A stretch of DNA of 63,983 nucleotides, the filler included, from Hausera hauseri (taxonomy: Eukaryota), in NCBI GenBank assembly GCA_046269625.1. It is 12 parts of 12 records of this genome, joined end to end, with 100 filler letters (N's around TTAATTAATTAA, not from the genome) between each part and the next. Parts side by side here need not be neighbours in the genome. Positions count along the whole stretch, not along the records: positions 12,757 to 20,064 come from JBJURY010023342.1; 11 more parts are not named here. One strand, written 5' to 3'. A program made the position numbers and the translations under genes. The notes under the pieces are model-generated. The model was not told where the DNA came from, did no database searches, and saw only the letters and a list, made by a program, of their open reading frames with translations. How positions within the stretch are numbered: position 1 is the first letter of the stretch; each line of letters opens with the position of its first letter. Below, piece after piece: positions 9,801-60,779 of this stretch.

Positions 9801-12144
9801 GTCTTTATTGATTATTATTATTGTGTAATATATTCTGATTTTGTGACACACATTTTACTGATGAACTTATACCAAAACCCTTAGCACATTTCAAAGTTTT
9901 GGTGATGGACGACGAAGCATATGTCCCCTGGGAAGAAATTTTATCACGGATCCTTTCGTTTCAGAGGCCACAATCGGCGGTAAAATATAACCGATTGAGT
10001 GTCTGAAGAAGCGTTTACTGCGCAGCGGGAGGAGGGGAGGAGGGGGATAAAATTGGCAATACAATTTCATGGACATAAATTTTGGTAGGAATAAGATTAC
10101 ATTTTGGTAGGTCTAATAAATCAATAAAATCAATAATTAATGGCCTATCGATTGAGGGAGAACCAACCAACATTTACCCGCTTATGGCAAATTCTCGTAT
10201 GCATTATTTGTTGACAAGAAGGAGGTCTACTGGGATTATTTCTTAACCATCATGTACAAAACAAGACATTGCAGCTATTCAGTCGATGGAATGCATTGAA
10301 AAAGAGCAAAAGCGGAAGAACGAGAGCTGTATATGCGATGTAGAGTTTGTTAAAGTGCAATGCGAACCAGGACGTCGTGGATGAATGGCAGGCATAGATA
10401 GGAAACATGAAGTCTAAGCTTACAAGAGAAACGTCGAATCACAGGCATTCTGTTCTTCTACAAAATCAGCAAATAAAGATCCGCCAATTCCTCCATCATC
10501 CGATTCGTCAGTTTCTTAAGCTGAAGGAGATTCCGGGAATAAGAATCGACGGTTAGGTTGTCAGTCAAGGAACAATGTAACGCTATCATGCAGACGATAG
10601 ACAACTGGAGTAAATGCAAGTTTACTCGTGGTCCCTTTGAGACAGTTGACTTCCCCTCTGCTTTTTTGACTTTGACATCACCGTTGAAGAGAAACGAATA
10701 ATGATTGAGGCAATTCATACTGTTGAAGGACAACAAGTATTCACCAACAGAGGATAGATTTAATACTAGAACAGGCGTCCGTCGAAAAAGATTCAACCAG
10801 ATAACCACCTGTAATGTTACTTGTGGTGTAGGTCATCGATTATGGAATTAGTGACAACAACAATATTTGTAAATATTTACCATTGATGGCATTTAAGTAT
10901 TATTTAGAAATCAATAAATAGTATATTTAAATTGAAATTTGAATAATTGAATGTAAATCAATGAATAGTTTATGAGAGATGGGTGTAATGGTATAATTAA
11001 TCTATATATCAAATTAAGCTAAATTTCATGTATACATTACGATACTCAGCATATTGTCCAAATGTGACTCATTCGATCGATAACTCATGGCCTGTTTGGG
11101 TAGCCCTTGCATTTTCAACAGTGTTGTATCAAAAGTTGCGTCGTCGATCGTTCTGTGTTGTCAATTAGCGGGCAATTAGCAATGAAATGGGAAAATGTAG
11201 TCATTAGTGATGAACAATATGATTAATAGTTCCATTTGTATCCATTTGTACAGTTGTCATAGTCAAATGAAATGGGAAATAATGAAATAACGGACATTTT
11301 GTTATTATTTATGATCGGTTGCGTTGGTTATTTCATAACAAAATACCTAACAGTACATAAAATGAAATGCAACTGTCAAACGTATAACAATTATCTCATT
11401 GTCGTCCTCTCTATTGTTCATTATTCAACTCGCATTGATTGCAAATTAAATTTTCATCTCACTCTCATCTATGAAAATAATTGTACTTTTATTGATTATC
11501 CCATTGGTTCTTTTTCTGTCTCTTTATTGATTAGTATACATTTGATGTTTAATATCATCACAAATGCCACAAGTGAAACGTCAAATTTTCATTATAATTT
11601 CATATGACACACACACATACATACACATATGCACACATACAATATATTCTTTGATTATTGGAAATGCCGGTTCTGGCACACACAACTCCTCCAGAAATTG
11701 CGCAATCCATCATGTGCTCTCATGATGCAATGTTAAAATTTGCGGAAATATACTCAGAGGACTAAGAAATTGACCTTAAAGGAAAAATGGCTTTTTGGAA
11801 ATTGCGTCATAACGAAGAAACATATTGCATCCAATCCGTACGGTCCAATGCCGTCCATATAGGATTCATTCGTCTCACTTCATTGAATCGAATCGAACGA
11901 CATGTTAACCAACTCCATTGGACGCACGGGAGCTGAGATATCGCACATCAGTACCGTTATCCAAACATTTTGCATATACCACTAGAATCGCGCTGACACG
12001 CCTACGTCAAAAATGCAACAACGCAATTCCCATAAACATACGAAAGGACTCATTTGGCCAGTTTTGTTTGTGCTTGCTGATAAATTATTTTAATTATGAT
12101 TATAATTAATTAATTATAATTAATCGAATTGTATGGCATTGTAG

Positions 12145-12509
12145 GCCATGAATATCGAATGTACAACACGTATGATGTCCACTATTACTCCAGTTGGGCA
12201 TTAGTCACGCTGTGGCCACATTTACAGGAGTCCATTCAATACGACATGACTGATGCCACAACTGCTGATGACCAATCAAATTGTTACTACGTCCATAAGG
12301 GTGTACAGGAAGCACGTAGTAACCGATTTGCCATTCCACATGATGCCGGTGATCCAGAGGAAGAACCATTTTTGTTGTACAATGCATACATCATGTACAA
12401 TACTGATGAATGGAAAGACCTTGGACCAAAATACGTGTTGCAGGTGTTCCGTGATTGGAAAATGACAGGGAATGATAGTTACCTTCGATATACATTTCCA
12501 GTTGCCATG
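12145..12509 (+). CDS. GBA2: GBA2 internal exon (3' boundary uncertain)
   Basis: G|HEYRMYNTYDVHYYSSWAL..LWP..Q...PHDAGDPEEEPF...NAY...WKDLGPKYVLQVFRD; joins the previous exon in phase across a 2.3-kb intron. Confidence 0.93.
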
Positions 12510-12756
12510 TTAAAGTATAAAATTGAAAGTTTATTATACAAATACGGTTAGCAAAATGTATGTATAGCAAGTAACGGGAGAAAAACACAGGAACTTGGTG
12601 AAAGTACAGAAGAAGATGGCGTATTAAGGATGAATAAAAGGGAAAAAGACACGAGGNNNNNNNNNNNNNNNNNNNNNNNNNNNNNNNNNNNNNNNNNNNN
12701 TTAATTAATTAANNNNNNNNNNNNNNNNNNNNNNNNNNNNNNNNNNNNNNNNNNNN

Positions 12757-14216
12757 TAAACTTCAATTTGCCAAAATCCTTTACGTAAATCTAATGTGGT
12801 GAACAACATTTTGTCTTTTAAATTATTCAGTATTTTATCGATCCTAGGTAACGGATAAGTGTTGTCCACTGTTACTTCATACAAGGCGCGGTAATCTAAA
12901 CACATCCTGATAGATCCATCTTTCTTTTGTACCATTACAATTGGGGCTGCCCATGGAGAATTACTTGGTCGAAATATGTCGTGCTGTTTCATCTCAGCTA
13001 TTATTTCTTTTGTCCTTTCTCTTTTATCATAATTAAGCCTATATTGTCTCTTCTTAATGGGAGTCTCCATTCCTTGTTTTAATTTAATTTCATGCTTGAT
13101 GACTGGTATTACTCCCATATCATATTCATCCACTGCGAATACATTCTTACATTGCTGTAATATTTTTATTATGCCTTCTTTTTCTGCATCTGTCAGTGAG
13201 CTCTCTTTACCAAACAAATCATAGTCATTCTAGTTGATAGGGGTTTTCGTAAGTTTTATAGTTTTATTATCTTTATTGAGATGGGTTTTTAATCTAATCA
13301 TTGGCTCGTCCTCGAACCGTATTCCACATTCTGCTTGTGGTTTTTGACGTTGTTTTTCTACGAATTCGGATAATTCTTGTACAGTGGAGATAATAGCTTC
13401 TATTGCCTTATTACCTACATCTTTTGTAATATATATGTAGGCAATTCTTGTGCCTTTCCTCAATAATTTTGGTTTATTTGAAACAGTAGCTATTCGAGAA
13501 ATTACTTGTTGTTCTCGAATATTATCGATCGCATGAGCAATCCATAATTAACTTTTATCCATAAAGTTTACATTTGGTTCAATGTATACATCTCCTTCCT
13601 CTCGACCTTCTACTAAAGCTTTAAACACAACTTCTGTCCTAGCTGGTATTAGTACATATTCTTTGATAGATACCGTATCCTTTTTCTCTTTCTTAATTTT
13701 TCGGTATGGTTGAATTTGTTGGGTTTCTAAATTTATACACATATTTTTTAATTTTGCTAACGCCTTACATTCAAGTATAGCTTCAGCTACTAATTCGTCG
13801 GCTATTCCAAATTCCTGTTCGAATTTTTGATTAAGTACTTTCGTTTCACATTTAATTAAGTCTTTTACCTGCACTTTAGTTCCAAATGCTCCAATATTCG
13901 TAATATCTTCTGTGGGTTTTTGTAATTTCTTTTTTAATTGTTTGGGCAACTGTTTCCGCAAAATCATTGAGGCCGATGCTCCTGTGTCAATTATTGCGGT
14001 GATAGGATATCCATCTATCCATATTACTGTGCTTGATATTACTTTACCTCCATCTATACTGGTTATCAATGCCTGTTTTGGAGCGGATGGATAGAACATG
14101 AGCTTCAAATGCTTTGAGTCATAATTGTCTATACCACTTGAATAATGTATATCTATATATTCATTAGGAGACATAAAGTGTTGCTGTTTTAATTGGTACT
14201 CATTCCACCTTCTCAT
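12757..14216 (-). mobile_element. Ty3/Gypsy aspartic protease - linker - reverse transcriptase N-terminal part (pseudogenised)
   Basis: AIIDTGASAS protease motif; RT motifs SPWAAPIVMVQKKDGSIRMCLDYRAL, YPLPRID, LDLRKGFWQI. ORFs starting at 14216, 13463 and 13217 share one frame, split by single stops. Confidence 0.93.
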
Positions 14217-14399
14217 CTGAGGAATATCTGATATTAAAGTCCTTCGCTTCTTACTTAGAGCAGTAATTAAACTCCATATCCTTCTAGTGTTTTCGGTTGG
14301 TTTAGGTATTTTCTCCTTTATCTTCTTTGGTTGGAATTTGTTTTGATCGTTACTATTATTATCGTCATCATTCTTGTTTTTGTTTTTCTGTTTTCATTC

Positions 14400-16240
14400 A
14401 GCGTCCTTTTTAATCAAAAAGCAACTAGCTACGGATGGAATTAGTGCACAAATAATTTTTCATGTACACTCAACAGCTTGTTTAATGCTCTAACCTTTGG
14501 TTATCATAGTCAAAATTGCTTTATAAAGGCGAAAATATAATAAAATCCCAGACATCCTGAATTAAATTGGCCAAACCACATATACCATCCCCATGCGGTC
14601 GCAAATATATCCTTAGCTATTTTCTAAGCATAGTCCGGTCCTATCAAATTTTCCCTGTTAGCTTTCCCGATGTGATCAGCTAACACTCTCATTGCAATCT
14701 CTGTTAGAACTTTTTGTCTATGTTGAGGGAACATCATCATTCTTCTATGGTTTTTCATATCTTGCTCGGAATACACACCCATCTTTACTAAGTCTATCAA
14801 TGGCTTATACGTTTGTTCGGTTTTGAAATTGATTAAACTAATCCTCCGAGGTGGAGTAATCTGATCCTTCTGCGGCACCCTTATCCATAAGTTATCGCTT
14901 AGTCGATATGCTGGCGACATAGTATATGTACAATTTGGCGTACATATGGTTTTTCTGCCGGATCTAATAATATCCGGGTGATTAATTGCAAGAAACGTGG
15001 TTTTTCCTTGTACCAGATAGGTAACTCCATGGTACAGTCGGTTGTTGGTCTGAGTTTGACAGCTACTTTTGTACAATCGAAAGTTACTAGCGTCTCACCC
15101 ATTGTTTGAGCAAATTTCCATTCTGCATGGGGAGACTCGGCTGGATCTTTTATTATTCCGTCCGTTATCGCAGATAGATATATTCGGTTTCTAATTATCT
15201 CTCTGTTCAATTTACAATCATTTAATATTATTTCTCGATACATAGCATAAATATTTTCTTGTTGGAAGTGATAAATAAAATCAATCTTATTATCGAAATA
15301 GAGATGAGGCTTCACTTCCGATTTATCAATCTTCCTTTTAACTTTTGTTATTTCTGTTGTGGATAAAAATGTCCCTTTATAATTTTTTCGAAATATTGTG
15401 TGGTCGCATCTTCTAGTGTCACTTTCTAATTAAAATCTCATTCCGTCTTGAGGATTTGCGGAATATACCATGGTAGGAGTCTCAATCATATCCGATACTC
15501 GGTCTAGTTTACTCTTAGATATTTCTTCTTTATACATTCGTCCTTTTGTTTCATTGAACTTTCCTGTTTTTAATAAAGCTAATTGACACTGATCCCTATT
15601 GACTTCATATGACATAATTGATTCACCAGTGTCACATTTTTTATTATAATAATCACATTCCGGGAACGTCATCATCTTTCCTGAAGACAGCTCAAAGAGG
15701 GCATCGTATTCTCTCAACTCAACTTGGTAATCTTCAATAGCCACTATATTATCTAAAATTTCGCCATTTATATTGTAAGACTCACCCTTACAATATCCCG
15801 TCTTATCAACTGTTTCAGCCACGAAAATTCTTTTATTGATAGTTTTTCCTTTCTGAGCTTTCAATCTAATATTGCCAATATTAATCTGTTTTGTCACAAA
15901 AGCCTCTATGCACATTCGTTTACTTATAGGAAGTGGTTCGAATGGAGTAGTTGGTTCAACTATTGCTGAGTTTCGGTACCAATATCCGAAAATGAAGTGA
16001 AAGTATTTCTTTCAAACAAAGCATTCTTTTACCTTAGTTTTCACAAACTCTGACTGTTGATAAACGTAGTACTGTTTTTCCTATATAGTAGTTAATGAGG
16101 CTGGATTGGCAAAAGGACATTGTTCTAAATCTAATAAGGAATATATTGGACCTTCATTGGCTTGGCTGCAATCATAAGCAATAATTGAAAGTGCTTCTGG
16201 CATCAGGCTAAACAAAAGAAGTATGGGTATTACTTTGGTT
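14400..16240 (-). pseudogene. Chuvirus/Monjiviricetes-like class III fusion glycoprotein (env-like), embedded in the Gypsy polyprotein
   Basis: Signal peptide VIPILLLFSLMPEALS then IIAYDC..YSLLDLEQC; GYCKG; ECDYYNKKCDTG; HLYFDNKIDFI...MYREIILNDCKLNR; GETLVTFDCTKVAVKLRPTTDCTMELPI; GVYSEQDM..RMMMFPQHR; C-terminal W/G-rich hydrophobic segments. Several stops and two frameshifts. Confidence 0.85.
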
Positions 16241-16698
16241 AGCTATGATAAGTCGAAATCCGGTTGTTGGTTTTGTTGTCTCTCTGATTGCTGAGGTGGA
16301 AGATATTCCATTCGTTGCTGTGTAGTTGGTGTCGATTCATGTATTGTTTTATGGACCAGGCTACTAATCCATCCACCTCTGCACTTTATCCATCCCTCGA
16401 CATTATCCTTTAATGCTCTTGTGGCAATTTCTATATTTCACTGTATTTCCTCCTGGTTCGGATTTACACCGTTCATTACCATTATTGCTGTCACAATTTT
16501 ATTTCGGTACATACCAGTTCCCATCATTCTTGAAAGAATATCCCTCTCCTGTATTTCATTTATCCTCTCGTCTGTAGGGATATCCGCAAATTGTTCACTA
16601 ATCTTTGCAATTTCATTCCTTATAGCATGCATTAGCGAATCCGGTATTTGTAAATTAGTATTAAACTCAACGAATACATTATGCACTCTTGCTAACAA
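16241..16698 (-). pseudogene. Unassigned helical plus Q/P-rich polyprotein segment, in frame upstream of the glycoprotein signal peptide
   Basis: Same frame as the glycoprotein N-terminus, with two in-frame stops; truncated at about 16700. Confidence 0.55.
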
Positions 16699-16699
16699 G

Positions 16700-17410
16700 G
16701 TTCAAAGAGATCAGACTATTGCTCAAGCCTTTGTCGAAGAAATTGTTTTTAATTATGGAGCACCGACTAAATTATTGACGGACCAAGCACCAAACTTCAC
16801 AGGAGAAATTATGGCGGAAATATTAAAAAAATTTCAAATACCACAGTTCAAAACTACTCCGTACCATCCTCAAACGAACATAACAGTAGAAAGATTTAAC
16901 GGAATATTAACTAATATGTTAGCGACCATGGTCAATGAACGACAAGACGATTGGGACGAATATATTAAACCATGTTTATTTGCAATAAGAAATACAATTC
17001 ACCCCGCAACCAAAGAGACACCCTTTTATTTAATGTACCTTAGAGATGCCCATATGCCAATTGATTTGGACTTTAAAATGCCCGTCTCCCATTTAAAAGA
17101 CATGGAATACAAAGAATTATTAGAAGAAAAATTAGGATATGTATGGAATTTAGCCTCACGTCATATAAAGATATGTCAAAAAGAGTATAAAGAACGCTGT
17201 GACGAAAAAGCTAAACCACATGACTTTAAACCTGGGGACAAAGTCATGTTGCATACATCCTTGAGTAAAAAGGAAAATACATCAAAATTAGACAGACCAT
17301 ACAAATGTCCATACATGGTTCAAAAAGTAGACGAAACTAACATCTACTTAAATAAAAATAAAAGAAATAAAATCGACCCCATAAAAGTCCATATGAACAG
17401 ATGTAAACCA
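16700..17410 (+). mobile_element. Ty3/Gypsy integrase core (N-truncated) plus GPY/F-like region
   Basis: TIAQAFVEEIVFNYGAPTKLLTDQAPNF...TTPYHPQTN..VERFN...DWDEY...TPFYLM...FKPGDKVML...KLDRPYKCPY...VHMNRCKP. Confidence 0.93.
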
Positions 17411-17439
17411 GCACCCGTGGAGTCAAAAATAAGGAATGA

Positions 17440-18600
17440 AAACCTCGGTCCATTACTAATAGAAACATTTGTAATATTAACTTTAGTGACTAGTATATCA
17501 GCCGAATCCTTGGCTGTAAATTACAAAGCCGTACAAGTTGGGAAATACCCTTGCATAAAAATCGCGGCTAATCGGAATTTAACAACAGATGAATATATAC
17601 ATATATTCATATCAGAATTACCTATAGTGGAAAAAGCAACGCCAGAAAACTGCGATTTGTACTATAATTATTCAATACACATTTGTTATTGGCTTTAATT
17701 CGGAGAAATGTATAGGATCGAATATGCAATTGGAAAGAGTGATCACAGTTACAGAACATATTTCTCATTCCCTGGTACTACCCATTATTTCCATCGATCC
17801 TATTTTCTTATTTCGTTTTACACTAATGTCATGAAAAATGGACCTTGTGAAACAGCAGAACCCGACATTACAATCACAAAATATATCAAATTTAAATATG
17901 CAATATTAGATGGAATCAACAACATATATTATAAACCAACTTATCAGAATCCTTACTAATCTTGTCCTATTGTTTTTGATAAGGAGTACGCAATATATTA
18001 TTGGACCGCGTATAATGGTTATACATTGTCAAAAACAGCAGATGGTCCGGAGACAATTGCGAAGTCCCTGATAAGGACAACAGAAAAAATAATTATTTTG
18101 GTAACACAACTGAGTAGTTCAAGAACACTACAAAGAATAGTAACTAGTCCAGCAATGGAACCAAAGAAAGCTATTAAGGAATTAGACATAATTATCCAAC
18201 AAACAACGCATTCATTAGTTATTACAGTGACAGATTTAAAGACTACGAAAATAAAGTTTGAATGCTATTTTAATCACAGGGTGGTCGGTGAAGGAATTTT
18301 AACTCCGGAGGAACCAACCTCAGCTTGCATATCTTTAAAAGAAAACACAAGCTATAAAGTTATTATAATAGAATTAAATGAAGAGGGTCAAAATATTCAA
18401 ACTATTAATCGAATAGAAAAGACATTAAAACAAGTGGCTATGACAAATATGAAGGCCATAAAAACAACTAGACCAGATTATGAGAACAACTCAAACTAAT
18501 ATATACAAATAATGATTGTATTATGTGTATTTTTAATACTAATAGTTATATTGTAACTCTTAACAATTTATTGTTCTAAAATAAAACGCAGCCAACGTAG
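17440..18600 (+). pseudogene. Type-I membrane protein (signal peptide, beta-rich/FN3-like ectodomain, TM) in frame after integrase
   Basis: LLIETFVILTLVTSISA signal-like segment; ORFs 16421, 17708 and 18026 share one frame; SLKENTSYKVIIIELNEEG resembles the FN3 LxPxTxYxVxV strand; TM IMIVLCVFLILIVIL*LLTIY followed by basic KIKRSQRR. Confidence 0.65.
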
Positions 18601-18608
18601 GACAAAAA

Positions 18609-19850
18609 ATGTTAAATGAATTAAAACTAATAAGGGAGGACGCCGAAAATGAACCAATAAAGAGAAAAGATGCGTATTACATTAAAAGCCTAAGGCAGGT
18701 TGAAAGACTTGCCGATCAAAAGCGACAAATTCGATCGCCTAAGGATATAACTATATGTCTGTGCACAACTATACAAGATAAGGCCTCTGAGTTCTTGGCG
18801 ACCTATCAAAAGATTAGACAATCAAAATATAAAAACATTTCCATTCTTCAAACCTCTCGGCTAATATTATATTTCTTTGTAGTCCAAGAAGGTTCAGAGC
18901 AAGCCCAAAGACAGAAATCGTTCTACCACAATATTACGGCCAATTCAACGGCAACCATGCATAAAGATTATTCATACTTCGGCAAAGCTTCACGCATACA
19001 AAACAATTTAAAATGTCACTTAGTAACCCAAAGGTGTGGTCTTATTATCAAATTGCAAAGCCGATCGGCGAACTTAACAGATTTAATTGATATTTCTGGG
19101 CGAACCAGATCTGTCTATATTTCAGTAGCAAGAGAGGCCGTTCAACTTAAAAGCAGATTCTTGTCAAATAATATAACCGATACCGTAGAACTTTTGGCAT
19201 TTACGACAATTCACCTTCATCAACAGTTCTACAAAAATGCCGCGATTATTATACGAACTTATACTGGATCATCACCAATAATATATATCGAGGTAACGAG
19301 AAAAGATGTACATAAAGTACAATACGACATGCCTACTTATGAAACACCTATATCAAAACGGTTTAAATTAGAGACAGGTATATCATTCTTTAGAAGTTCT
19401 CAATTTACTAAGCAAGATGTCATGATAGTAGCAATTAATTTAGCTTACACGATGACTCCAATTCGGAATAAAGAAACTACTCCAGTTGAAATCACTATAA
19501 AAACATTGAAGGTGATATTATTTTGGATCAAATTATTTGTCCACGAGATAAAGATGATAACTACAACACATATCACTGGCCTTAAGGAAATGGATTTAAT
19601 AGGTCAAATGGATACTAATCAAGTTGAATCCCAAATGAGGAAAATATTAATCGGAAAACCAATAATCGGAATGTACGTATTTAAACATTCAAATACATCA
19701 TATCTTGGGACAATATCCTTGACCTACGGGATCTATTTTATCATAAAAAAATTAAATTCCAAAATGAAGAAACTACAAAACAAATGTTTACAAGATTTAA
19801 TGAAGGTATTTAGCCGCAGAGAACTTCAGAAAAAGCCTCAACGATATTAA
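18609..19850 (+). pseudogene. Cytoplasmic accessory region ending in a degenerate REX4/ISG20-like DEDDh exonuclease fold (about 19425-19690)
   Basis: IVAINLAY...PVEITIK/(shifted frame)NIEGDIILDQIICPR/...THITGLKEMDLIGQMDTNQVESQMRKILIGKPIIG follows the REX4 pattern; the ExoI acidic residues are absent. Confidence 0.6.
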
Positions 19851-20164
19851 AAATATACAATTCAGTTCCCCGATATAAAAATAAAATCGAAATGTTGAAA
19901 CCACCGTTAGAAACCATGGATACATCAGAAACTACGTTTAATGACCGAGTCTAATCTAAATCCATGAATTCTTTATCCGAAAATAAAAGTCAAGCGACTG
20001 TCTAGACGCCCAAGAATCTTGAACAAATGACAGTACCCATTCAAACATCATCATCCAAAGTTTCNNNNNNNNNNNNNNNNNNNNNNNNNNNNNNNNNNNN
20101 NNNNNNNNTTAATTAATTAANNNNNNNNNNNNNNNNNNNNNNNNNNNNNNNNNNNNNNNNNNNN

Positions 20165-26557: not shown

Positions 26558-29500
26558 TATGCGATGTGTTTGCTTGCAGAGGTTGAAATTGGGGGAAAAA
26601 TTGTCAAATTTTGTAGTGAATGTTGTATCGTGCAAAGGCGAGTCAGAACGAAGGGAAGAAGGTGAAGAATGGAGAAAGATTGTTGGAGACGGATGGTTAA
26701 AGGTATTCAAGAGAGTGTTATAAGACGACGGAGTAACAACAGGCGAAATGGCGGATGAAAGAGGAGAGACGAAAATTAAAGTAGAAATTGGAATTGTGTT
26801 AGGCGAAAGAGTAGAAGTAAAAAATGAGACAGAGGGAGTGGTAGAGAAAGAAAGAGAGATAGGAATAGAAGTAGGAGGTGGAAAATTATGAAGCAGAACT
26901 AGGAGCAGGAGGTGAAACTGGTGTAGCAACAAATAAAGGAACAGCAGGAAATGTAGGAGTAAAAAAAGGGGTTGACGTGTCGATTGGTGAAGTGTCGTCG
27001 ACAAAGAAGGCAAGCTTTAAGTTGGTACTGTAAGTTCTTTACAGTCTTTAGAGATAATAGCATTATGTGAATGCAGCTGTATCAGTTTATAGGGCCCCAA
27101 ATACCGCGACTGAAAACCGCACGGCGTATGATTTTTTAGCCATACGAATTTTGCTGAATACAAGTTTTTGTGTAAATGTTTTGTCTTTGTGAAGTATGCC
27201 GCAGAACGAATCTTTGCTGACCGTAACGAAGTGATTTTGCGCCGCCCGTATCGTTTTATCTGTAGGAGCGTCGTCCAGGCAGTTAGTTCGAACAATGTTC
27301 GTACAGGAGCTCCGAATAATACTTCGGTAGGTGAGCATCCCGTAGAAGTAGACGGAGTGTTCAGCCAGCCAAGCAAAACAAACGGAAGAAAATTCGTCCA
27401 ACTAGTGTTGGACTCTGCAAGGGTTCTTAGTGACGTTTTCAATGTTCGGTGGAAGAGTTCTAGGAGGCCATTCGATTGAGGATGGTAAGGCGTAGTATGT
27501 ATGTGATGGATCCCCAATCGGTTAACAAGGGATTTGAACATGTTGGATTCAAACTGTGGACCCTGGTCCGTGAAGATGAAACGAGGTGATCCAAACCTGC
27601 TAATCCATGTGCGAATGAAAACGTCAGCTGTGGTATCAGAGTTCATGCTTCGCAGAGGGATGGCTTCTGGCCATCGCGAGGAACGGTCCATCATGGTAAG
27701 AATGAATTGATGACCGTTGTCTGAGGAAGAGGGCCAACGATGTCGATATGCACGGATTCGAAACGCGATGTGCAGAGGAAGTGGAACAGTGACGGCTTTA
27801 AATGCTTAGTTGTTTTGAATTTTTGGCAAGCCATACACTCCTTAACCCATGCCTGCACATCAAAACGCATTGACGGCCATATTACTTGTCGATGGAGTAA
27901 ACGAAAAGTGGCTTTAGCATCAGGGTGGTGTAGCGAATGTACGCTATTGCAATGATGGTGAGAGAATTATGACGGAATGACCTGGTTTGGAAGTGTCTAA
28001 AGCCACGCTGTCAACAATTGTGCAAGATTTGAAAGCATTAAGCATGTCTTGAGGTGGCTGGTTCTGTTGAAGTTAAGCTTGCGTAAAAATCGGTGAAAAA
28101 TTAATCGAACTAACCGACCTACATAAAAAATCGGCAACGATTTTATTAACCCCATTAATATGTTTTATGTCGAAGTTAAATGTCGACAAGTATGATAACT
28201 GTCGTTTTTGGAGTGTGGAAGGATGTTTCATAGCCATGATGTTAAGTAAGGGTTTGTGATCGGTTTATATAGTAAAATGGCAAGTGACAAGTAGGAGAAA
28301 TGCTTTAAAGCAAGAGCGATGGCCAATAACTCTCGATCGAACGTTGAATATCTGGTTTCAGGGGGTGTTAGCTTGCGAGAAAAAAATTCTAGCGATTGAT
28401 TTTCTCCTTTGTAGATCTGGTGTAGTACAGCACCTATCGCAGTGATTTAAGCGTCTGTAGTAAGGATGAGTTCTGCAGCAGGCTTGGGAAAAGCGAGAAT
28501 GTCGACGGTCTTAATTCATTCGCGTAGCTTATCAAATTTGTCTACAAACTCAGGTGTCCACTGGATTGGCTGATGTTTTTGCCACCGCTTGCGTGCAAAT
28601 GGTGCTGTCAATTCGGAGCAATATGGTACATATTTGTATACAAAGTGTAGTATACCGAGGAAGCTGCGCATTTCGGTGGTCGTACGTGGCAATTGGATAT
28701 TCTTAAGGGCTTCAACGCGGTCTAGTTGAGAAGAGTGGCCGTCTGGTGAAATAACGTGACCTAAAAAGTTGATGCGCTTTTTAGTGAAATGGCATTTTTC
28801 GAAATTGGCTTGGAGATTATGGTGGTTAAGGCGTTGGAATATTGCGTGTTGTTTGGACGAAGACGAAACGATGAGAATAGGATCAATGTAAGGGTGCGCA
28901 AACTGGAAATTTGAGAGAATCGAATCAATATGTCGCTGAAAGGTCTGGGCGCATTTCTTAAACCGAAAGGCATAAACAGGTACTTGTAGAGGCCAAAAGG
29001 AGTAGTGACAGCAGTTTTTTCTATTTCTTCGGGTTCCACCGGTATTTGGTGGTATGCTTTGGCTAAATCGATGGTCGAATATGTTAGTTGAATTAAGGCG
29101 ATGCAGGATGCCCTTGATGAGTGGTAAGGGGTAGGAATCCATGATGGTCAAGTTGTTCAACTGTCGGTAGTCACCACGTGGTCTAAAAGTACAGTCATTT
29201 TTTGTACAACGTGTAAAGGTGACGACCGAGGAGATTTCGAACGGCGTACAATGCCGGAGCGTTCTAGTTTAAGAAATGCGGCTTCTACGGCTTGTCTACG
29301 ATGAGGTGACAGTGGTCTTACCTTTTGACATATTGGTCGTTGATGCTGTGCAGTTATGAGATGTACAGTGCTGTTTGTAGGAATCAACGCACGATCTTTT
29401 TTAAGTACGCGTGGACATGATGTGGTAACGGATTGCTGTAAAGTTGTAGGTAACTGTGAGAGATTTGGCAGAAGTGATGAAACGGCTTGAGTAGTAGCGG

Positions 29501-31563
29501 ATGCAATTTGTAAATTGTTTTGTGATGTGCAGTCAAGTAGTATTTGGTGTAAGATGGTCGAATTAAAAATAGTGTTGGATGAAGTGATTTCGTCGAGTGA
29601 ATGAACATTTGTGGCAGTACCACAATTATCGATATTGAAGCTCGATCGAATATCAATATTATTATTTAAAAATTTACGAATTGAATTATTGTTATAGAAA
29701 TTCGAATTATATATTGATTTTTCCAAAATTCACCTCCGTGTCTCGATCGATTGCACGGTAGTTAAAATGCTATTGACATGCTCAGTATTTCTGCCAGTGA
29801 TGCCGCTCCTCAGACATCGTTGACTACAGTCAACCAATAAATTATAATGTGATACAAAATTGGACCCTAGAATTGCCATCTGGATGTCAACAACTGTGAA
29901 TGTCCAGTGGAAAGGTGAAGGAAATTTTGGTAAGATGAAAAATAATTTAGCCGTGACAGAAATGCGCAGCGGTTGACCTGAAGGGGTGTATAAGTGTTTA
30001 ATTCTAAATGGTGAATTTTGTACAGAGAAAGATTGTGGTAATAAGGAAATCGCTGCACCTGTATCAATGAGGAAATATACGGATTGCGTTGTAGGAGAGG
30101 TGATTGCAGCCTTTAGAGTAAAGACAGCAAAAGAGGCATGTCGGCATTCAGAAAGTGAAGTAGTGCTTTTGCCAAAGTTTGCCGTGACTTCTGGAGGCAA
30201 ATTTAGTTTTTTTGAAAAGGTGAACTAGGATGACTATTAGAAGAAAAGGTAGTACTTCCGTCATTCGTGTCTGGTTTCAAAGTGCAGCCTGGAATGAATT
30301 TACGAGTTTGATTTTTAAACTTTGCGTGGTAAATGCAAACAACGGTGACTGAAGGAAAACTTTTATTGTAAAATTTGCACCCTTTGCAGCATTTCTTGGC
30401 ATTCTTGTTGAATCTGCTGTGATAATAGCAGATTGACGACCGCGCAGGCAATGGTGACCAGTTTTTAGATGCAGAATGGGCGAGGTTTGCAAGAAAATCC
30501 CTTCGCCGGGACACGGAAAGCTCATTCAATTTGTTGTTTATATTGTTAATGGTTGCGTGTAGTGCGGTATTTTCAGCACGTAGCTGATTGAGTTGTTGTT
30601 CTATTGATATGTTATTGGTTTGAATATCATTAGGGGCAACTGCCGCCGAAACAACTTATGGACAATGTAAGTGTAGAACACCATGTGTTTTATCAGCTAA
30701 TTCGGTCAATTTATCAAGAGCCGTGGAGTCCTCCACCACGGTAAGTAGGGCCCCAATTTGGATAAGTAACGCGATTAAAAAGTAATGACGCAGTAGTTCG
30801 GGGTAGTGTTCTTTACTGACGCCGAGAGTTTGCAGATGTGACAAAGACGTGCCTAAAAGTTATGATGGTCGTTGTGTGCGTATAGAATTGTCGTGGAAGA
30901 AGCGTTGTATGACGGTGTCGATTGAGGGTTCTGTGATTTTAAGAACAGCGTTGGAGAGCTGTCAGTATGAGTCAGGAAGTTCAAATATTTCAAGGCTGTT
31001 GTTAATTCGTGTTTTAATGTTGTTAGGGAGTAAGAAGAGGATATTGTGTCTTGGTTAAGGGGTCGGTGATATTGTTTGCCTGTAGCCACAGTTGATGGAA
31101 TTGCAGCCAAACTTTGCTGGAGCCTTGGTTGCCAATGAAGAATTCGGTGCAATTAGGGAAAGGAGCGAAAGGGGTAGTAGGTAAAGTATTATTGGTGGAA
31201 GAAGGAATGGATTTTTGAAGTAGTATGACAAATTTTGGTTTCGTGGTGGTTTTATCCGTGGTGTCTATGGTGGGTGATGAATTCATGCCACCACGGATGC
31301 GGAAGTGTATGTGGAAGTGAATATAAGTTGAAAAAGGTTACAGGGTACCAACGAGAGGTACCATGGAGCCGTGGTGTGACGTAAAAGTCAGATGAGCGAA
31401 GAAAAGTGGAGGACGTAGTATATAGTAGCAGTGTTTAATTATGTTAATGCATTTGTACGAATGTTTATTATTTAAAGAAGAGGAAATACGGAGATGTCGT
31501 GTAGCCGGGGGCGTGTCGTGGGGGTTCAGTAAACGGTGTCGCCTGACCCAATGATATAGGGTG
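26558..31563 (-). mobile_element. Near-complete degraded Ty3/Gypsy element: gag - PR - RT - RNase H - IN - Pro/Ser-rich tail
   Basis: Gag with CYYHSRF..AKKC..C motif; FLIDTGAAISLLP; [22 protein letters not shown]; RNase H SRKLTPPETRYSTFDRELL; IN RWPEAIPL...TDQGPQFES...YHPQSNGLLE...YLGPYKL. Confidence 0.92.
30206..30212 (-). promoter_or_regulatory. A_AAA_AAC -1 ribosomal frameshift heptamer at the gag/pro junction
   Basis: Minus strand CAA AAA AAC TAA ends gag (stop 30205-30203); the -1 frame continues KLNLPPEVT into the protease ORF. Confidence 0.75.
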
Positions 31564-32487: not shown

Positions 32488-35400
32488 TTACATAATATCC
32501 TGCTGCACATAACCATGAGGCAGTGTTCTAATGCCATCCTCCCTTATCCATCGCTTATCGTCGTACCAGTCCCAGCTTTTCTTCACCAACTTAACTACTG
32601 CGATCTTATGTTCTCTGGACTGTATCCTTTTTATTTCGGACTTGATATTGCATTGATCCCGCAGCACCCGAACATAATAATCAAATGTTATATTCCTGGC
32701 CAGTGTTGATTTTTGTACCCCTTTGCCCGTTTCTTAATTTGTCTGCACACAGCGATGGCGTACATTTGTGACCGAAGAGCCACAAACCTCGATATTATCC
32801 TTGTATTAACTTCGTCCTTTAACTTGCCCAAAACCTTCTTATTCATCAAAGAATAATTTCTGTGTTCTTTAGGGTAATCGGATGTATCCATATGTGTAGC
32901 TAATTTGGCAAAGTCATCATACATGTCCGCCGTTTGAATTTGATACACGAAGGAGTCAGTATCCATGTACATTAGCTGCAGCCTTTTGTTGAATGTTGGA
33001 ACCATTACGTCATAATGGAAATTTTACATTAGTGTCTTCGATATGTCCAGTATGGACATGCCAACATATATGGGCTTACTGAATTCCAGGCTCGTCTTAA
33101 GCATATGGATACTGACGAGGTTTTCTACATATATAATACTGCTGTGAAAGTTGGGCTTCGTAATTAGTTTTTTCGCCCTCTTCCAATCACAGACCAGTTC
33201 TATATTTATTCGGTTCCTGATGTTCTCCATTGTTTTTCCGAACACAATGTTGTTGTACAACTTCTACTGGTTCTTTTCGAAGTCATTTTTCGCGTCGGTC
33301 CTCAGCTTTGTGTTAAAATCGATATATGGTTGCAGCCACCTGGATTGACTGAACCAAAGGGATCGATGGATCTTCGTGATGCGGAGTCCATTCTTTATCG
33401 CCTGCTGGAGATTAATGTAATGTGCTACATATCTCTCCTTGTTCTCCATATAACAGAGCAATTTTGTAAATTTTCTGTTTGGCGGCTGTTTGCTGTCTGA
33501 GAGGAAAAACAGCTGTTCATGCCTTTTGTGGATATCATTTGGGTATTCCACGTCTACCTCCAATATGTATCCAACATCTCCGTTTGGGTCCAGGTCCTGG
33601 ATCTTGATCTCGTCCGGCTGCTCATCTCATTGAAAATTGCTGTATGGTAATAGCTTGCTTATTGCCCAACCATATAGGTTGTTTGCATCTAGGTATGTGA
33701 CGTATTGGGATGGTTTCAATGCATCATAATCTGCCATATAAATGTAGTTGGCTTCACTATATCTGTGAATGGCCTGACAGATTCCTCCCCTGATTCCTCG
33801 CTCGATCATGAAGTCCATGTTATAGTCCTTTAGGATCTGCAACCGGATACCCGTATATGTGAGCATTGCTGCCCAACTCATTTCAGAGGCAGTAGAGAAA
33901 TGAGCCGGATCCAGCTTGTGACTCGCAAGTGTGACGTCTCTGAACCTTTCGAAGACGTTCGTAAGCAGCAGCACGTCTGTTTGGAGATATACATCGCTAT
34001 AATCTTCAATTGTCCTGCATTTGAATGTCTGCCAGACTCGCTGTGAGTGTTCATAATCAGTATCACTGATACCTGTGTCTGACAGTTTGCTGTAGAAGTC
34101 TTTCTTAGCTGGAAGTGTTGTCTCGTCCAATGATCCCCACGAAGTTATATAATTATAGGGGAAAACACCACTCCTTTTGACTAAATCGAAAGTTGTTGGG
34201 AAAAACTTCTTCGTTTCCTTCAACTTTTCTTCTGGTAGATTTTTGATCAGGCTGTCCAGTAACGATTCCATAAAACGATAACTGTCGATAAATCTAAGTC
34301 TGGTGTGGCCCACATATATAGTAAATGAGATATATTTCTCTTCGCTATTCGGGATCACCTGAATGTCACCCTTAATGTTGCCGAATTCATGAATAGTGAA
34401 ATGGGAGTTATATCCACTGAGATTTTGGAATATGACGGGGACATGTGAACAGGTTTTACATCGTAGGTTGCAATTGTTGCAAGCTGCGCCTCTGTATTTG
34501 CCGGTTACATGGCAATGATCCCTTACCTGCCTGTTCTTTATCGTACATAGGCTTCTGCATAGGTAGTATAATGTTGCCATATGCACATCTGGATTCTCTG
34601 ATGATGACATCACATTTGTATCTTTACGTTTCTGTCGAATCTCTTGAATTCTGTAGACCACATCCTCCAATCGCTTTATGAAGTGTGCCGCTGAATTTTG
34701 ACCCTTGAATAAGAATGGCTCCGCATCGAGTCTTTTGTCATACATACAGTATGATGATAACTCGTGCTGCTGGTATGCCGTTTCGCTACTCCATTGAGAA
34801 TTGGGACTACAACTGTGCACTGGTCTGAGGATCGCTTCAAAGTCGCAGTATATAACTACTGGCACTTTGAGCATTTTTTCGTACTCCTGGAACTCGATAT
34901 AATTTTCCTTAGGAAATTCAGTCCGGATGCAATAGTTTTTATTGCAGTACATCCTATGTTCCTTGAGCTTCTCCTCAGCACCTTCACCGCTAAAATGTGA
35001 CAAACAGCATTTGCATATTGTAATTCCTTTATGATTTTTTGTAATTTGGGATCTGATGAGACGTTCAAAATTCCTTATCCATACGTAGTGGCTCTTATCA
35101 CCATCGTCTATCATGAGAAGATCCTTATGGTCATTACGTTCCACCTCACACACGTTTAGGGGATAGAATCTATTTGTTTCGTCCACTGAAAATTTATTAA
35201 TGGATATATGATTCACACGTGCAAATTTCTTGATTTCCTCCAAAGTTTGTGAAAACGTCATGCAATCAAAATCATAGCTATGCCGTAAGTCATTGCACAA
35301 CCAAACCCGCGAGGCATTATGTTCATCCGCTATGAGTTTCGATAAGATGGTATATTTAAAGCACATGTTGTCCTGATTGAGCACATTTACACATGCTTTC

Positions 35401-36214
35401 TTCTTGCGGATCCACTCTGGGAGCTCTATGTAGGAGCTACCTCTCATCGGGCTGTACTTATGTACATGAATCATCAATCGCGTGACTGATGAGAGAGCCC
35501 AGCTGCTCCCCTTATACTGGCTCTCCTCACCTTCATGGATAAGTTTTGTATATTCCTCATTGATCCATTCTTGAATGTTGGTAGACTGCGTTATCGGCCT
35601 ATTCTTCGTCTTGAATGTCCGATGTGATATTTCGAAATCGACATTACTGTATGCTGCCTCTAACTTAAGGTTGACTTGAAGGGCCTTGAGTTCCACCAAA
35701 ATGTCCTGGATGATACCCATACTTTCATTTGATGCAGAGTCCAGGAACTCATTGACGGTTGAATGACCTGTTGCGTCAATTATATATTTGCAGACCTTAC
35801 CTCCGAGTGCAGATGAATCAACTGACCGCTGCCTCTGACTTTTAGGTGCGGCACTAGTGGCTGCCGCAGCACCTCGGAAGTCAGCATGGTGGACTGTATG
35901 GTCTGTGTATAACTGTGAGTATTCAGCGCCGGTCACAGTCTCGCATACTGGGCAGATGTAATAGTCCAATCCATAATATTTTTGCCCATAATATTGTCGC
36001 ATTACTCTGTGGCAATCCTCCGAATTATGTGCTGCTGATGTGCAGTAGGTGTATGTTGGACACCTTTGAGTATTCGGTTTTTCAGCATTATGCACAGATG
36101 GCATATTTGAACGGAATATCTACTTCTTGGATTTTGATGCAAAATATTCCAGATGGTGGGCATGATCTTCTTGAAATTCTTCATGCGTTCTGCATATCGT
36201 CTCACATCTGGGGC
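32488..36214 (-). mobile_element. Polinton/adintovirus-like protein-primed family B DNA polymerase (broken into several ORFs) with an endonuclease VII-like Zn domain
   Basis: GSSYIELP, IYCDFEA (ExoI), RDHCHVTGKYRGAACNNCN, FIDSYRFM, YLDANNLYGWA, NNIVFGKTMEN, YMDTDS, DDKR. Confidence 0.93.
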
Positions 36215-40785: not shown

Positions 40786-43700
40786 GTATTAACTGATGCA
40801 CTTATAAGATGATGTGCTTATTATTCGATACGCTTATTATGTGATGCGATCAAAAGGTGATGCACTTAATAGGTGGTGCACTTATTAGGTGCGGTGCTTA
40901 TTTGTTGATGCTGTGATTAGGTGGTGCGCAGACTAAGCTATGCATTTAATTATCGATGCGCTTATTAAGGGATGCGCTTATTAGGTGATGAACTTATTAG
41001 TTGATTCACGTATTAGGAGATGCACTTATAACGTGAAGCGATTATTAGGTGAGAGGCTTATTAGGTGATGCGATTATTATGTGATGCACATATTAGGTGA
41101 TGCAATTATTGGGTGAAGCACTTATTAGGTGACGCTGTTATTGGGTCGTGCGCAGATTAGGCGATGCACTTATTTATCGATGCACTTGTTAAGCGATGTG
41201 GTTATTATGTGATGCAGTTATTAGATGATGTCTCTATTTGGTCCTGCGCCTATTAGTTGATGCACTAATTAGTTGATGCGCTTAATAAATGATGCACTTA
41301 TTAGGTGGCGCACTTATAAGTTGATGCACTTATAAGGTGATGTGCATATTAGGTGATGCGCTTATTACGTCATGCACTCATTGGTTGATGCACTTATTAA
41401 GTGATGCAGTTATTAGGTGATGTACTTATTAGGTGATACACTTATTATGTAATGCACTTCTTAGGTGATGCGCTTAATAAGTGAGCCTCTTATTAGGGGA
41501 TGCACTTATTTGTCAAATAACATATCAGGCGATGCGCTTAATAGTTGATGCATGTATTACGTGATGCACCTTTTAGATGATGCACTTATAACGTGATGTG
41601 CTTATAAGGCGATACGTTTATTAGGTGATGCTCTTATTAGGCGATGCACTCATTAGGTGATGCATTTATTAGGTGATGCACTTATTAGGTGATGCGCTTA
41701 TAACGTGATGTGCTTATGAGGCGATACGTTTATTAGAAGATGCTCTTATTAGGCGATGCACTCATTAGGTGATGCATTTATTAGGTGATGCACCTATTAG
41801 GTGATGTACTTAATAGATGATGCGCTTATTAGATGATGCTGTTATTATGCGGTGCGCAGGTTAGGCGATGCACTCAATTATCGATGCACTTATTAAGCGA
41901 TGCGCTTAGTAGGTGATGCACATATTATTTGATATGCTTATTAAGTGATGCACAGATTATGCGATGCACTTAATTATCGATGCACTTATTAAGCGATGCG
42001 CTTATTAGGTGAATCACTTATTAGGTGATGCTATTATTAGGCGATGTGCTTAACAGTTGATGCACTTATTAGGTGATGCACTTATTAGTTGACACGCTTA
42101 TTAGTCGTTGCACTTATTAGGTGATGCACTTATTGGGTGATGCACCTATTACTTGACGCACTAATTATTTAATGCACTTATGAGTTGATGCGCTTATTAG
42201 TTGATGGACTTATTAGGTGATGGTCTTCTTAGTTGAGGCGCTTATTATTTGATGCGCTTATTACGTGATGGTATTAATAGTTGATGGGCTTATTAGGTGA
42301 TGCGCTTACTAGGTAAGGCGCTTATTAGGATATGGGCTTATTAGGTGATGTCCTTCTTAGGTGAGGCGCTTTTTAGGTGATTCGCTCATTACGTGATGCA
42401 CTTATTTGGTGTTGTAATTATTAGGTGATTCATTTATTAAGTGATGCACTTATTATGTGATTCACTTATTAGGTGGTGCGCTTAATATGCGAGGCTCTTA
42501 TTAGGTGATGCACTTATTTGTCGAATCACATTTTAGGCGATGCGTTTAATCGGTAATGCACATATTAGGTGATGAAATTATTAGGTAATGCACTTATAAG
42601 GTGATGCACTTATTAGGTGATACGCTTATTAGGTGACGCGCTTATTAGGTGATGCGCGCATTACGTGATGCACTTATTATGTGATGCACGTATTTGGTGT
42701 TGTATTTATTACGTGATGCATTTATTAAGTGATGCACTTATTATGTCATTCAAGTATTATATTACGCTCTTAATAAGTGAGGCTCTTATTGGGGGATGCA
42801 CTTATTTGTCGAATCACATTTTAGGTGATGCGCTTAATAGGTGATGCTCGTATTAGCTGATGCACTTATTAGGTGATGCTGTTATTAGGTGGTGCGCACA
42901 TTAGTCGATGCAATTAATTATCGATGCACTTATTAGTTGATGAACTTATTACGTGATGCACTTATTAGGTGATGCTGTTATTAGATGGTGCGCAGATTAG
43001 GCGATGCATTTAATTATCAAATCACTTATTAAGCGATGTGCTTATTAGATGATGCACTTATTAGGTGATGCACTTATTGGGCGATGCACATATTAGTTGA
43101 CGCACTAGTTAGTTGATGCACTTATTAGTTGATGCGCTTATTAGTTGATGGACTTATTACGTGATGGTCTTCTTAGGTGAAGCTCTTATTAGTTGATGCG
43201 CTTATTACGTGATGGTATTAATAGGTGATAGACTTATTAGGTGATGCGCTTATTAGGTGTTATGCTTATTAGGAGATGCGCTTATTAGGTGATACACTTA
43301 TTAGGTGATGCGCTTGTTAGGTGATGCGCTTATTAGATTATGCACCTATTAGATGATACACTTATTAGGCGATGCACTTAACAGGTGATGCACTTATTAG
43401 GCGATGCACTTCTTATTTCATGCGCTTATTAGGTGATGCGCTTATTGGTTGATGCACATATTAGTTGACGCAATAATTAGTTGATGCACTTATTAGTTGA
43501 TGCGCGTATTATTTGACGCGCTTATAAGTTGATGGACTTATTAGGTGATGCCCTTATTATGTCATGCACTTATTAGGTGATGTGCTTATTAGTTCATTCG
43601 TTTCTTAGTTGCGACACTTCTTAATTGATGCACTTATTAGGTGATGCGTTTTTCATGTGATGCGGTTATTAAATAATGCACTTATTAGGTGGTGCGCTTA

Positions 43701-49700: not shown

Positions 49701-50153
49701 ATGCACTTATAGTGTGATGCGCTTATTAGGTGATGCGATTATTAGGTGATGCACTTATTAGGTCATGTGCTTATTAGTTCATGTGCTTCTTAGGTGCGGC
49801 ACTTATTATTTGATGCACTTGTTAGATGATGCACTAGTTAGGTGATGGACTTATTTCTCGAATCATATATTAGGTGATGCGCTTAATATGTGATGCACTT
49901 ATTAGCTGATGCACTTATTAGATGATGCGCTTATTAGGCGTTGCAGTTATTATGTGAAGCATTTATTACGTAATGGACTTATTAGGTGATACACTTCTTA
50001 GGTAAAGCGATTATTAGGTGATGGACATATTAGGTGATGCGCTTATTATGTGACTCCCTTATTGGGTGATGGAATTATTAGGTGATGCGCTTATTAGGTG
50101 ATTCGCTTATTAGATGATGCGCTTATTAGGTGATGGATTTATTAAGTGATGCA
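40786..50153 (+). repeat. 16-bp satellite array, consensus TTATTAGGTGATGCRC, roughly 580 units, with higher-order variant blocks
   Basis: The whole contig is tandem degenerate 16-mers; no ORFs in any frame. Confidence 0.98.
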
Positions 50154-50255
50154 NNNNNNNNNNNNNNNNNNNNNNNNNNNNNNNNNNNNNNNNNNNNTTA
50201 ATTAATTAANNNNNNNNNNNNNNNNNNNNNNNNNNNNNNNNNNNNNNNNNNNNGT

Positions 50256-50351
50256 TTAACCAACGATCTGGGACAAAAGATCCCATTTATGAGCGGAACA
50301 TCGACGGTGACGTTACGTTTTAGGACGAAGGGACAAGTCGATTTCCAGTAA
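50256..50351 (+). pseudogene. Polinton minor capsid (penton) C-terminus
   Basis: LTNDLGQKIPFMSGTSTVTLRFR* matches the typical penton end, and it lies just upstream of the core/MCP genes. Confidence 0.7.
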
Positions 50352-50364
50352 GGTTGGTCAGACA

Positions 50365-50810: not shown

Positions 50811-50814
50811 AATA

Positions 50815-52072: not shown

Positions 52073-52076
52073 AAAA

Positions 52077-52550: not shown

Positions 52551-52635
52551 ATAACTATGACGTTATAAAACCGGGTTGAACCGGTTATAATGGTATATAA
52601 GAAGCTGCGTTTTCGCTGTAGCCAACACACTGAAA

Positions 52636-60569: not shown

Positions 60570-60670
60570 ACGGGCCATATAAAGTCGTGGATGTACGCCA
60601 ACAAACTATTTTCGTCCAGAAAGGACCGAACAAATATGAAGCTGTGTCCCTACAAAGAGTAACGAAAGCA
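60570..60670 (+). mobile_element. Ty3/Gypsy integrase C-terminal GPY/F region
   Basis: GPYKVVDVRQQTIFVQKGPNKYEAVSLQRVTKA, in frame with ORF 60587..61132. Confidence 0.65.
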
Positions 60671-60779
60671 TCAATATCATACAATGATTTCATAAGACAG
60701 GTAGAGTTAGAGTCATCAGATAAAGTAGAACCAAAAATAGCGGCTCTATTTCAGAGGCAAAACATGGATAACTTTAAAT

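Follow-up and report, generated by a model that had tools for sequence, protein, structure and literature searches.

The window analysed here is a 63,983-nucleotide stretch of Hausera hauseri DNA (assembly GCA_046269625.1), a chain of 12 short contigs with runs of N as linkers between them. Our subject is one small contig (JBJURY010023342.1; positions 12757–20064), bounded by N-run linkers on both sides, which contains two truncated halves of a Burro-like retrotransposon lying head to head. The minus-strand half begins at 16701 and encodes, in order, a segment designated X, an internal signal sequence, an envelope fusion glycoprotein (Env) of Pfam family PF24664, a membrane anchor, a linker, a protease (PR) and a reverse transcriptase (RT). 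The plus-strand half begins at 16702 and encodes the end of an integrase (IN) followed by a second membrane protein, here called Y. The 7.3-kb contig contains neither end of the element. A search for repeats across the window, dominated by a satellite and N-runs, gave no LTR (long terminal repeat) pair among the matches listed. An initial annotation of this DNA had given the same minus-strand order, which is borne out by Pfam matches to PF24664, RVP and RVT_1 and by hydropathy; it had overlooked the plus-strand integrase and the second membrane protein starting at 16702.

The minus strand is open in three successive frames (16701–14929, 14944–14510 and 14519–12757) linked by frameshifts near 14935 and near 14515. 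The three segments contain 5, 1 and 5 in-frame stops, 11 in total, compared with 52–61 when the first and third segments are read in their off frames, and the coding frame is therefore far more open than expected by chance. These counts agree with the initial description of one minus-strand frame broken by scattered stops and two frameshifts.

Env is matched by PF24664 (Monjiviricetes_fusion) in two blocks, with E 1.5e-33 for profile positions 6–423 and E 3.7e-24 for positions 426–565, and the match continues across the first frameshift. It starts at a predicted internal signal sequence (16186–16242, minus strand), where hydropathy peaks at 2.17 at position 16233. The ectodomain (14600–16185, minus strand) is, by sequence, of the herpes simplex virus (HSV)/glycoprotein B (gB) type, or class III, and carries stops and the frameshift near 14935. 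A membrane anchor and a second hydrophobic stretch are predicted at 14410–14599 (minus strand), a region that includes the frameshift near 14515 and three stops; the anchors of intact relatives have hydropathy values of 1.9–2.5. All signals, anchors and transmembrane helices described here were called by hydropathy only. The class III (gB/G-type) fold, proposed in the initial annotation, is supported at the sequence level by PF24664 and by a 32-sequence Env profile, for which all 26 PDB matches are herpesvirus gB (the best of them covers 74 positions, at E 0.008). As a single sequence, the window Env gave no matches in the PDB.

A search of 1.84 billion representative sequences returned 349 Env matches at E ≤ 0.001, of which the best 150 were listed. 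Among the matches listed, the top relatives are retrotransposon polyproteins with 32–38% identity, whereas stand-alone Env-like proteins of ~650–700 amino acids (aa) are mostly 20–28% identical and fall outside the clade of the window Env in a FastTree phylogeny. The tree contains 51 regions, namely the window and 50 of the 105 records with an Env of at least 400 aa, kept by rank or length; P0021 was too short and was left out, and P0026 and P0171 form one cluster. It places the window in an 11-row clade (support 0.997) among relatives that join Env to a protease, with a downstream protease motif in the same protein in 8 of the 10 other rows. Judged by sequence comparison, the nearest relatives of this Env come from retrotransposons and are not viral G proteins. 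The term ‘chuvirus-like’ used in the initial annotation is thus correct only at the level of the Pfam family. That family is the Monjiviricetes fusion family, which could suggest that a gypsy element captured a chuvirus glycoprotein recently. We regard such a capture as very improbable, given the distribution of identities and the position of the stand-alone proteins in the tree. None of the 10 matches looked up carries a chuvirus protein name (two are arthropod genome annotations and the others, the majority, are unnamed or hypothetical), and Chary and Hayashi (2026; PMC13524379) argue for an ancient origin of these Envs. A search of viral contigs gave 22 pattern matches, none of which was confirmed.

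Beyond the Env anchor, the minus strand encodes a linker rich in Asn, Asp and Lys (14025–14393), predicted to be a cytosolic tail. The anchor-to-protease distance is conserved in the sequences compared: 195 aa in the window and 124–217 aa in 9 of 11 relatives, the other two having 339 and 364 aa. The linker is followed by an aspartic protease with a DTG motif (13746–14024, minus strand; RVP, E 3.3e-7). The Met of MRRWNEY, with which the initial annotation had begun a protease open reading frame (ORF), lies ~60 codons ahead of the protease domain, whose RVP match starts at 14024. The interval between protease and RT (13230–13745, minus strand) is colinear with relatives in an alignment with P0001 and corresponds to the slot of the dUTPase-like domain reported for Burro. 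No Pfam dUTPase match was found in this interval of the window at E ≤ 0.1; the Burro paper (PMC6431247) used HHpred. The N-terminal part of RT (12757–13229, minus strand; RVT_1, E 7.8e-7) is cut by the contig end at 12757, and its match of 29.4 bits is marginally below the 29.6 cut-off. This RT is 43–49% identical to those of P0024, P0027, P0042, P0171 and P0173, relatives in which Env lies upstream.

Three stops (14492, 14462 and 14396) and one frameshift separate the Env anchor from the linker, so that an Env–PR fusion is not demonstrable from this copy alone. The claim of a stop-free linker in frame with the protease consequently stands only from 14393 onwards. The breaks might suggest that Env is a separate ORF, or an insertion that ends before the protease, an explanation we find hardly credible. 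The element belongs to a high-copy family in two public runs (X1 and X2), with both halves at high copy in both. Family contigs depart from the window copy at two of these breaks. Within the stop codon that precedes the linker, 82 contigs in X1 and 24 in X2 do so, accounting for ~98% and 100% of depth; at the frameshift close to 14515, the contigs number 14 in X1 and 3 in X2. Because most of the family depth differs there from the window copy, we attribute the breaks to decay of this copy. Throughout 14000–14700, all 30 bins have depth and overlapping family contigs tile the region, and neither a long terminal repeat (LTR) nor a foreign insertion lies between Env and the protease; separately inserted elements with an LTR between them would, according to the initial annotation, have refuted its proposal. 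A wider Env clade of 19 rows (support 0.997) also argues against a separate Env, since 13 of its 18 other rows carry the protease motif downstream in the same protein and the remaining five records end within or shortly after Env.

Intact relatives provide the most direct view of the polyprotein. We scanned 16 Env relatives, chosen for length, with Pfam: PF24664 is present in all 16, an aspartic-protease family follows it in the same protein in 11, and 5 continue to RT and ribonuclease H (RNase H, RH), 4 of these to integrase. Relatives with PF24664 ahead of RVP, RVT_1, RNase H and rve in a single ORF are P0024, P0027, P0033, P0039, P0171 and P0173. Two of them that are cluster members, P0171 with 4844 aa and P0173 with 3735 aa, have a stop-free Env-PR-RT-RH-IN arrangement, and the order of Env before PR-RT is therefore real. 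The frame from the BCL2-like domain through Env to the protease is likewise without stops in P0173 and P0022. Each of the four window segments has its counterpart in P0173, in the same order, and the N-terminus of P0173 has a Ty3_capsid match (E 0.011, below cut-off) and a CCHC knuckle. The proposal that X, Env, PR and RT belong to one polyprotein of a Ty3/gypsy element is thus confirmed in the intact relatives. Several of these proteins have further domains: tandem extra aspartic-protease domains occur in P0022, P0024, P0025, P0040 and P0171, with up to seven stretches in P0171, some after the integrase, and P0171 also contains ankyrin repeats and C2H2 fingers. The Env-Pol-FN3 polyprotein P0027 (HBK71150.1) has been assigned to a metagenome-assembled genome of Flavobacteriaceae and most likely represents eukaryotic contamination of the bin.

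Segment X (16330–16701, minus strand) is truncated at its 5′ end by the junction and contains one stop (16440) and a 7-residue deletion relative to its closest relative. It is separated from the Env signal by a spacer rich in Gln and Pro (16246–16329, minus strand). The initial annotation had left X as an unknown segment, and profile comparison revises this. A W-x-x-x-x-GGW-type motif ahead of the Env signal is found in the window and 6 of 173 proteins, and an iterated profile adds P0095 and P0032. The 7-sequence X profile matches Bcl-xL/Bcl-2 chains in the PDB (116 matches at E ≤ 1; best E 1.4e-4, to Bcl-xL) over the BH1–BH2 region only, which lies at about 16548–16360 in the window. Among the best 60 of these 116 matches, 59 are named as Bcl-2/Bcl-xL-type chains and one is named 5-HL. 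Pfam Bcl-2 is matched below cut-off in P0106, P0023, P0142, P0095 and P0021 (E 7.7e-5 to 0.055). P0021, a sibling 79% identical to the window over X–Env, has a CCHC knuckle at 197–212, a weak ubiquitin match at 473–522 (E 0.031) and a Bcl-2 match at 651–748 (E 0.055), followed by Env, which is the domain order PMC6431247 reports for Burro. By these profile matches, X is the Bcl-2-like domain of Burro elements. We considered this domain as a new feature and rejected the idea, as the Burro section of PMC6431247 already describes it.

The plus-strand half begins with the C-terminal part of an integrase (16702–17425; rve, E 4.8e-4), comprising core and C-terminal domain and truncated at its 5′ end by the junction. 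It is 51% identical over 241 aa to P0001 and P0173, which belong to the same cluster, and groups with elements that have Env upstream (support values 85/89 and 89/93). A second internal signal is predicted in frame with the integrase (17444–17503, plus strand; hydropathy peak 1.82), within a stop-free frame that extends from 16295 to 17698. The signal is followed by the ectodomain of Y (17504–18496, plus strand), of ~330 aa with two stops, and by a predicted transmembrane helix (18500–18560, plus strand; hydropathy peak 3.28). Six relatives also continue past the integrase (P0002, P0024, P0027, P0033, P0171 and P0173). A late hydrophobic helix is present in all six, and a post-integrase signal exceeds the hydropathy threshold in four, those of P0002 and P0173 being recognized by eye only. 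In five of the six, the ORF also includes the gB-type Env; the exception, P0002, is a partial sequence beginning at the end of RNase H. The window and five of the six tails share an L-x-P-x-T-x-Y-type motif. No homologue of the window Y was found among 491 candidates.

The Y ectodomain contains a module (18140–18442) for which a fibronectin type III (FN3) fold is predicted. An AlphaFold model from a 6-row alignment has seven strands and a pLDDT of 82.6. In Foldseek it matches FN3 domains in the PDB, 18 of them at E ≤ 0.001 with a TM score of about 0.6; the top matches are a centyrin, a monobody and fibronectin FN3, and FN3-like viral domains are matched as well. The whole tail ectodomain of P0002 has an Atlas score of 0.94 to fn3 clusters, with 181 shared features. 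A profile of six FN3-like modules places FN3-containing chains first in the PDB (neogenin, E 2.4e-4, fibronectin, Tie2 and Dscam). The Y modules are best described as FN3-like by predicted fold, not by Pfam membership, and as very divergent. A signal-FN3-transmembrane tail was not found described in the literature, of which subscription papers, Repbase, the extended data of Grohme et al. (2018) and figures may hold a description. The word ‘fibronectin’ does not occur in the portions of PMC6431247, PMC13524379 and PMC5408684 consulted. A second predicted membrane protein of FN3 fold that ends the same polyprotein is, on these models, likely unreported.

Directly after Y lies a stop-free ORF of 421 codons (18585–19850, plus strand), which is of low copy and may be an accessory ORF or unrelated to the element. 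It has no Pfam match and no homologue among 1950 candidates of 227–723 aa, and it is intact although it adjoins a decayed element. Family depth is ~100-fold lower after 18370. A similar tail layout can be seen by eye elsewhere in the window (60569–63425, plus strand): an integrase-like C-terminal end, a signal, an ectodomain with FN3-like cysteine/tyrosine motifs, a Ser/Thr stalk and a hydrophobic helix. This region looks unrelated, with no Pfam match and no BLAST match to the 16702–18562 half. After its hydrophobic helix comes a 363-aa ORF, the end of which resembles, by motif, a DEDD-type exonuclease.

Homology of both halves ends at the same base, 16701/16702, with no spacer and no LTR. The head-to-head layout is likely the result of an internal inversion within one dead element copy, in which a break at 16701/16702 would have turned the Bcl-2-to-RT part against the integrase–FN3 part. 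We think it rather unlikely that the halves are instead different copies, or members of two related families, joined head to head by recombination or nested insertion. Such a history would accord with the depth over Y, which starts at about 10,000 and declines towards 18370 to about 1,000, with an RT tree that did not resolve the placement of the window, and with the fact that no sequence record in the two public runs spans the whole contig. The shared breakpoint with neither LTR nor spacer is, however, what an internal inversion would be expected to leave, and both halves have the same best relatives. If two copies were nevertheless joined, the architecture of the lineage would stand, as relatives show it, and only the history of the locus would change. 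An assembly chimera of a high-copy repeat at 16702 is improbable. The assembly is fragmented, as the 12 short contigs of the window illustrate, family depth is very high, and seven X2 contigs cease to match at 16702 and continue into sequence absent from the window; but such a contig break is equally expected for a real copy-specific rearrangement, and each half is internally colinear with intact relatives.

The element can be placed by comparison with published retrotransposons. The PR-RT-RH-IN order of Ty3/gypsy is seen as PR-RT in the window and in full in P0024, P0027, P0171 and P0173. Membership of BEL/Pao was considered and rejected, with no Pao family among the Pfam matches of 16 + 5 relatives. 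Env lies in frame between a BCL2-like domain, recognized by profile over BH1–BH2 only, and the protease, as in Burro, and a gB-type ectodomain lies between signal and anchor upstream of POL, as in GAG-ENV-POL elements. The locus is thus a decayed Burro-like GAG-ENV-POL Ty3/gypsy retrotransposon. An Env in frame before protease and RT is already published and is not a new architecture, contrary to the initial annotation. Section 7 of Arkhipova and Yushenova (2019; PMC6431247) describes in-frame Gag-BCL2-Env-PR-RT in planarian Burro elements, and GAG-ENV-POL gB-type elements were published in 2022 by Sacco et al., as cited in PMC13524379, and again in 2026 in PMC13524379 itself.

According to the Burro section of PMC6431247, dugesiid planarians harbour giant gypsy-like elements known as Burro or GYPSM1 (Jurka 2007; Grohme et al. 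2018), with an internal region of up to 25 kb, MATH, BIR and ankyrin domains and polyproteins of 4,873–5,140 aa; decayed fragments with stops and frameshifts are mentioned there for a related species. Like the lineage of the window, Burro is described in that section as having one ORF with Gag-CCHC, ubiquitin/SUMO-like and BCL2-like domains, a mononegavirus-like Env in frame before the protease, and RT-RH-IN. The sibling P0021, however, has only ~630 aa before the Bcl-2-like domain, from which we estimate that the polyprotein of the window lineage is probably ~3,100–3,200 aa, shorter than that of Burro, and because of this shorter ORF we file the element as Burro-like and not as Burro. MATH, BIR and ankyrin domains are also absent from the parts seen of the window lineage, ankyrin being present in P0171, and the text of that section names no FN3 or transmembrane tail, whereas the window lineage has a predicted one. 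The GAG-ENV-POL gB-type errantiviruses of Platyhelminthes, Nematoda and Bryozoa (PMC13524379) resemble the window element in having Env before Pol and a gB-type ectodomain between signal and anchor. Domains I–II of the window Env, compared by eye only, have the motif and cysteine pattern of the six Schmidtea ‘C1a’ rows in supplement 2 of that study. This resemblance makes a flatworm a likely host, and the glucosylceramidase-like fragments, further gypsy element and Polinton-like genes of neighbouring contigs indicate a eukaryote, likely an animal. The main text of PMC13524379, as far as consulted, is without mention of BCL, Burro, fibronectin, FN3, ‘fused’ or ‘polyprotein’. The BEL/Pao element ‘Anakin’ (Dezordi et al. 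2020, as cited in PMC13524379) has the same glycoprotein family in an LTR retrotransposon but belongs to a different superfamily: the relatives of the window match capsid, RNase H and integrase profiles of Ty3/gypsy, with no Pao-specific family among those listed.

Taken together, we consider it highly probable that the locus derives from a Burro-like Ty3/gypsy element, as a copy that has decayed and likely undergone inversion, and that in intact relatives a single frame encodes Gag, a Bcl-2-like domain, a gB-type fusogen, PR, RT, RNase H, IN and a predicted FN3-fold membrane protein, with a predicted path through the endoplasmic reticulum (ER) and, likely, an enveloped particle bearing two surface proteins. 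In addition to the RT tree and the lack of a spanning record noted above, several observations weigh against this reading. The contig lacks Gag, LTRs, RNase H and the 5′ portion of integrase, and no starred clade contains the window integrase. For X, the window sequence alone gives 41 PDB matches at E ≤ 10, none of them Bcl-2 (the best, E 0.008, is unrelated), and its structure model is poor (pLDDT 47), Foldseek ranking Bcl-2 family chains top but at E ≥ 0.61. The modules in the six-sequence FN3 profile were picked by an FN3-like motif, the Atlas score, AlphaFold and Foldseek being more independent, and a leave-one-out profile of the five relatives' FN3-like modules misses the window module. 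Y has no Pfam match in the window, the best being fn3_2 at E 0.69 in P0002, and the tail of P0033 is without the L-x-P-x-T-x-Y-type motif.

A reasonable, inferred model for the polyprotein involves ER threading and signal peptidase, as the initial annotation had suggested. Gag, the ubiquitin-like domain and the Bcl-2-like domain would remain cytosolic, and the first internal signal would direct Env into the ER lumen, where signal peptidase would cut. The cut would leave the Bcl-2-like domain tail-anchored, in the manner of cellular Bcl-2 proteins, and the domain would likely dampen host cell death. The Env anchor would bring the chain back to the cytosol, with PR-RT-RH-IN tethered to the Env tail until released by the protease of the element. 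The second signal, after the integrase, would then direct the FN3 modules to the lumen, and the last helix would anchor Y. The polyprotein would in this way cross the ER membrane four times, at the signal, the Env anchor, the second signal and the Y anchor, a predicted topology that would tether Gag and Pol to the budding membrane. All parts would be present 1:1 on one membrane, coupling capsid, enzymes and envelope at budding, and the budded particle would bear the fusogen and a second spike.

Herpesvirus gB requires separate receptor-binding proteins. In the window lineage a class III fusogen is accompanied by another membrane protein of predicted type I topology, a pairing that recalls the herpesvirus entry machinery as an analogy only: both proteins of the window lineage are in one polyprotein, and no homology of Y to herpes receptor-binding proteins was found. 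By this analogy we tentatively propose attachment partner of the fusogen as the likeliest role for Y. An alternative that is only slightly less probable is that Y acts at the cell surface as a host modulator, either a decoy for a cytokine or growth-factor receptor or a superinfection-exclusion factor. Cytokine and adhesion receptors are built from FN3 modules and fill the match lists, and Y is very divergent among relatives, as are proteins in an arms race; the element also has another host-modulating domain in its Bcl-2-like domain, and Burro carries BIR and MATH according to PMC6431247. Fast divergence fits receptor binding equally, however, and because Y shares one ORF with Env and Gag, would be produced 1:1 with them and has a predicted type I topology, it would reach the same budding membrane.

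If Y is an attachment protein, binding would be separated from fusion in these retrotransposons, which would explain entry by a gB-type Env without herpes-like helper genes and give a handle on the cells reached. The contribution of the locus lies at the end of the polyprotein, where a predicted signal-FN3-transmembrane protein recurs after the integrase in the same lineage. A more speculative extension, to which we give limited credence, is that Burro-like elements are enveloped viruses that make a two-protein entry machine from one polyprotein, in which a gB-type fusogen would sit between Gag and Pol, a receptor-binding FN3 spike of host origin would be fused behind the integrase, and a tail-anchored Bcl-2 mimic would be freed by the same signal cleavage. 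If true, attachment and fusion would be split between two proteins in an LTR retrotransposon, as they are in herpes- and paramyxoviruses.

Other mobile-element sequences occur in the remainder of the window. A further decayed Ty3/gypsy element, without Env, lies at 27017–30655 on the minus strand (rve, E 8.5e-12; RVT_1, E 4.2e-7). Polinton/Maverick-like genes are found in 50254–55294 and 33627–36119, among them an adenovirus-type protease (52131–52547; Peptidase_C5, E 4.4e-7) and, by eye, an ORF at 51159 that resembles a capsid gene and two ORFs that resemble DNA polymerase B, one at 54588 and one at 33627, the second of which matches Endonuclease_7. A 16-bp satellite with >430 copies at ~70% identity spans 40786–50153. 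The contig neighbouring the Burro-like element contains a fragment of a GH116 (GBA2-like) glucosylceramidase (12120–12551, plus strand; E 7.8e-41). A cluster of RING-finger-like ORFs at 58386–59493 on the minus strand (zf-C3HC4_2, E 0.004) possibly represents accessory genes of a large mobile element.

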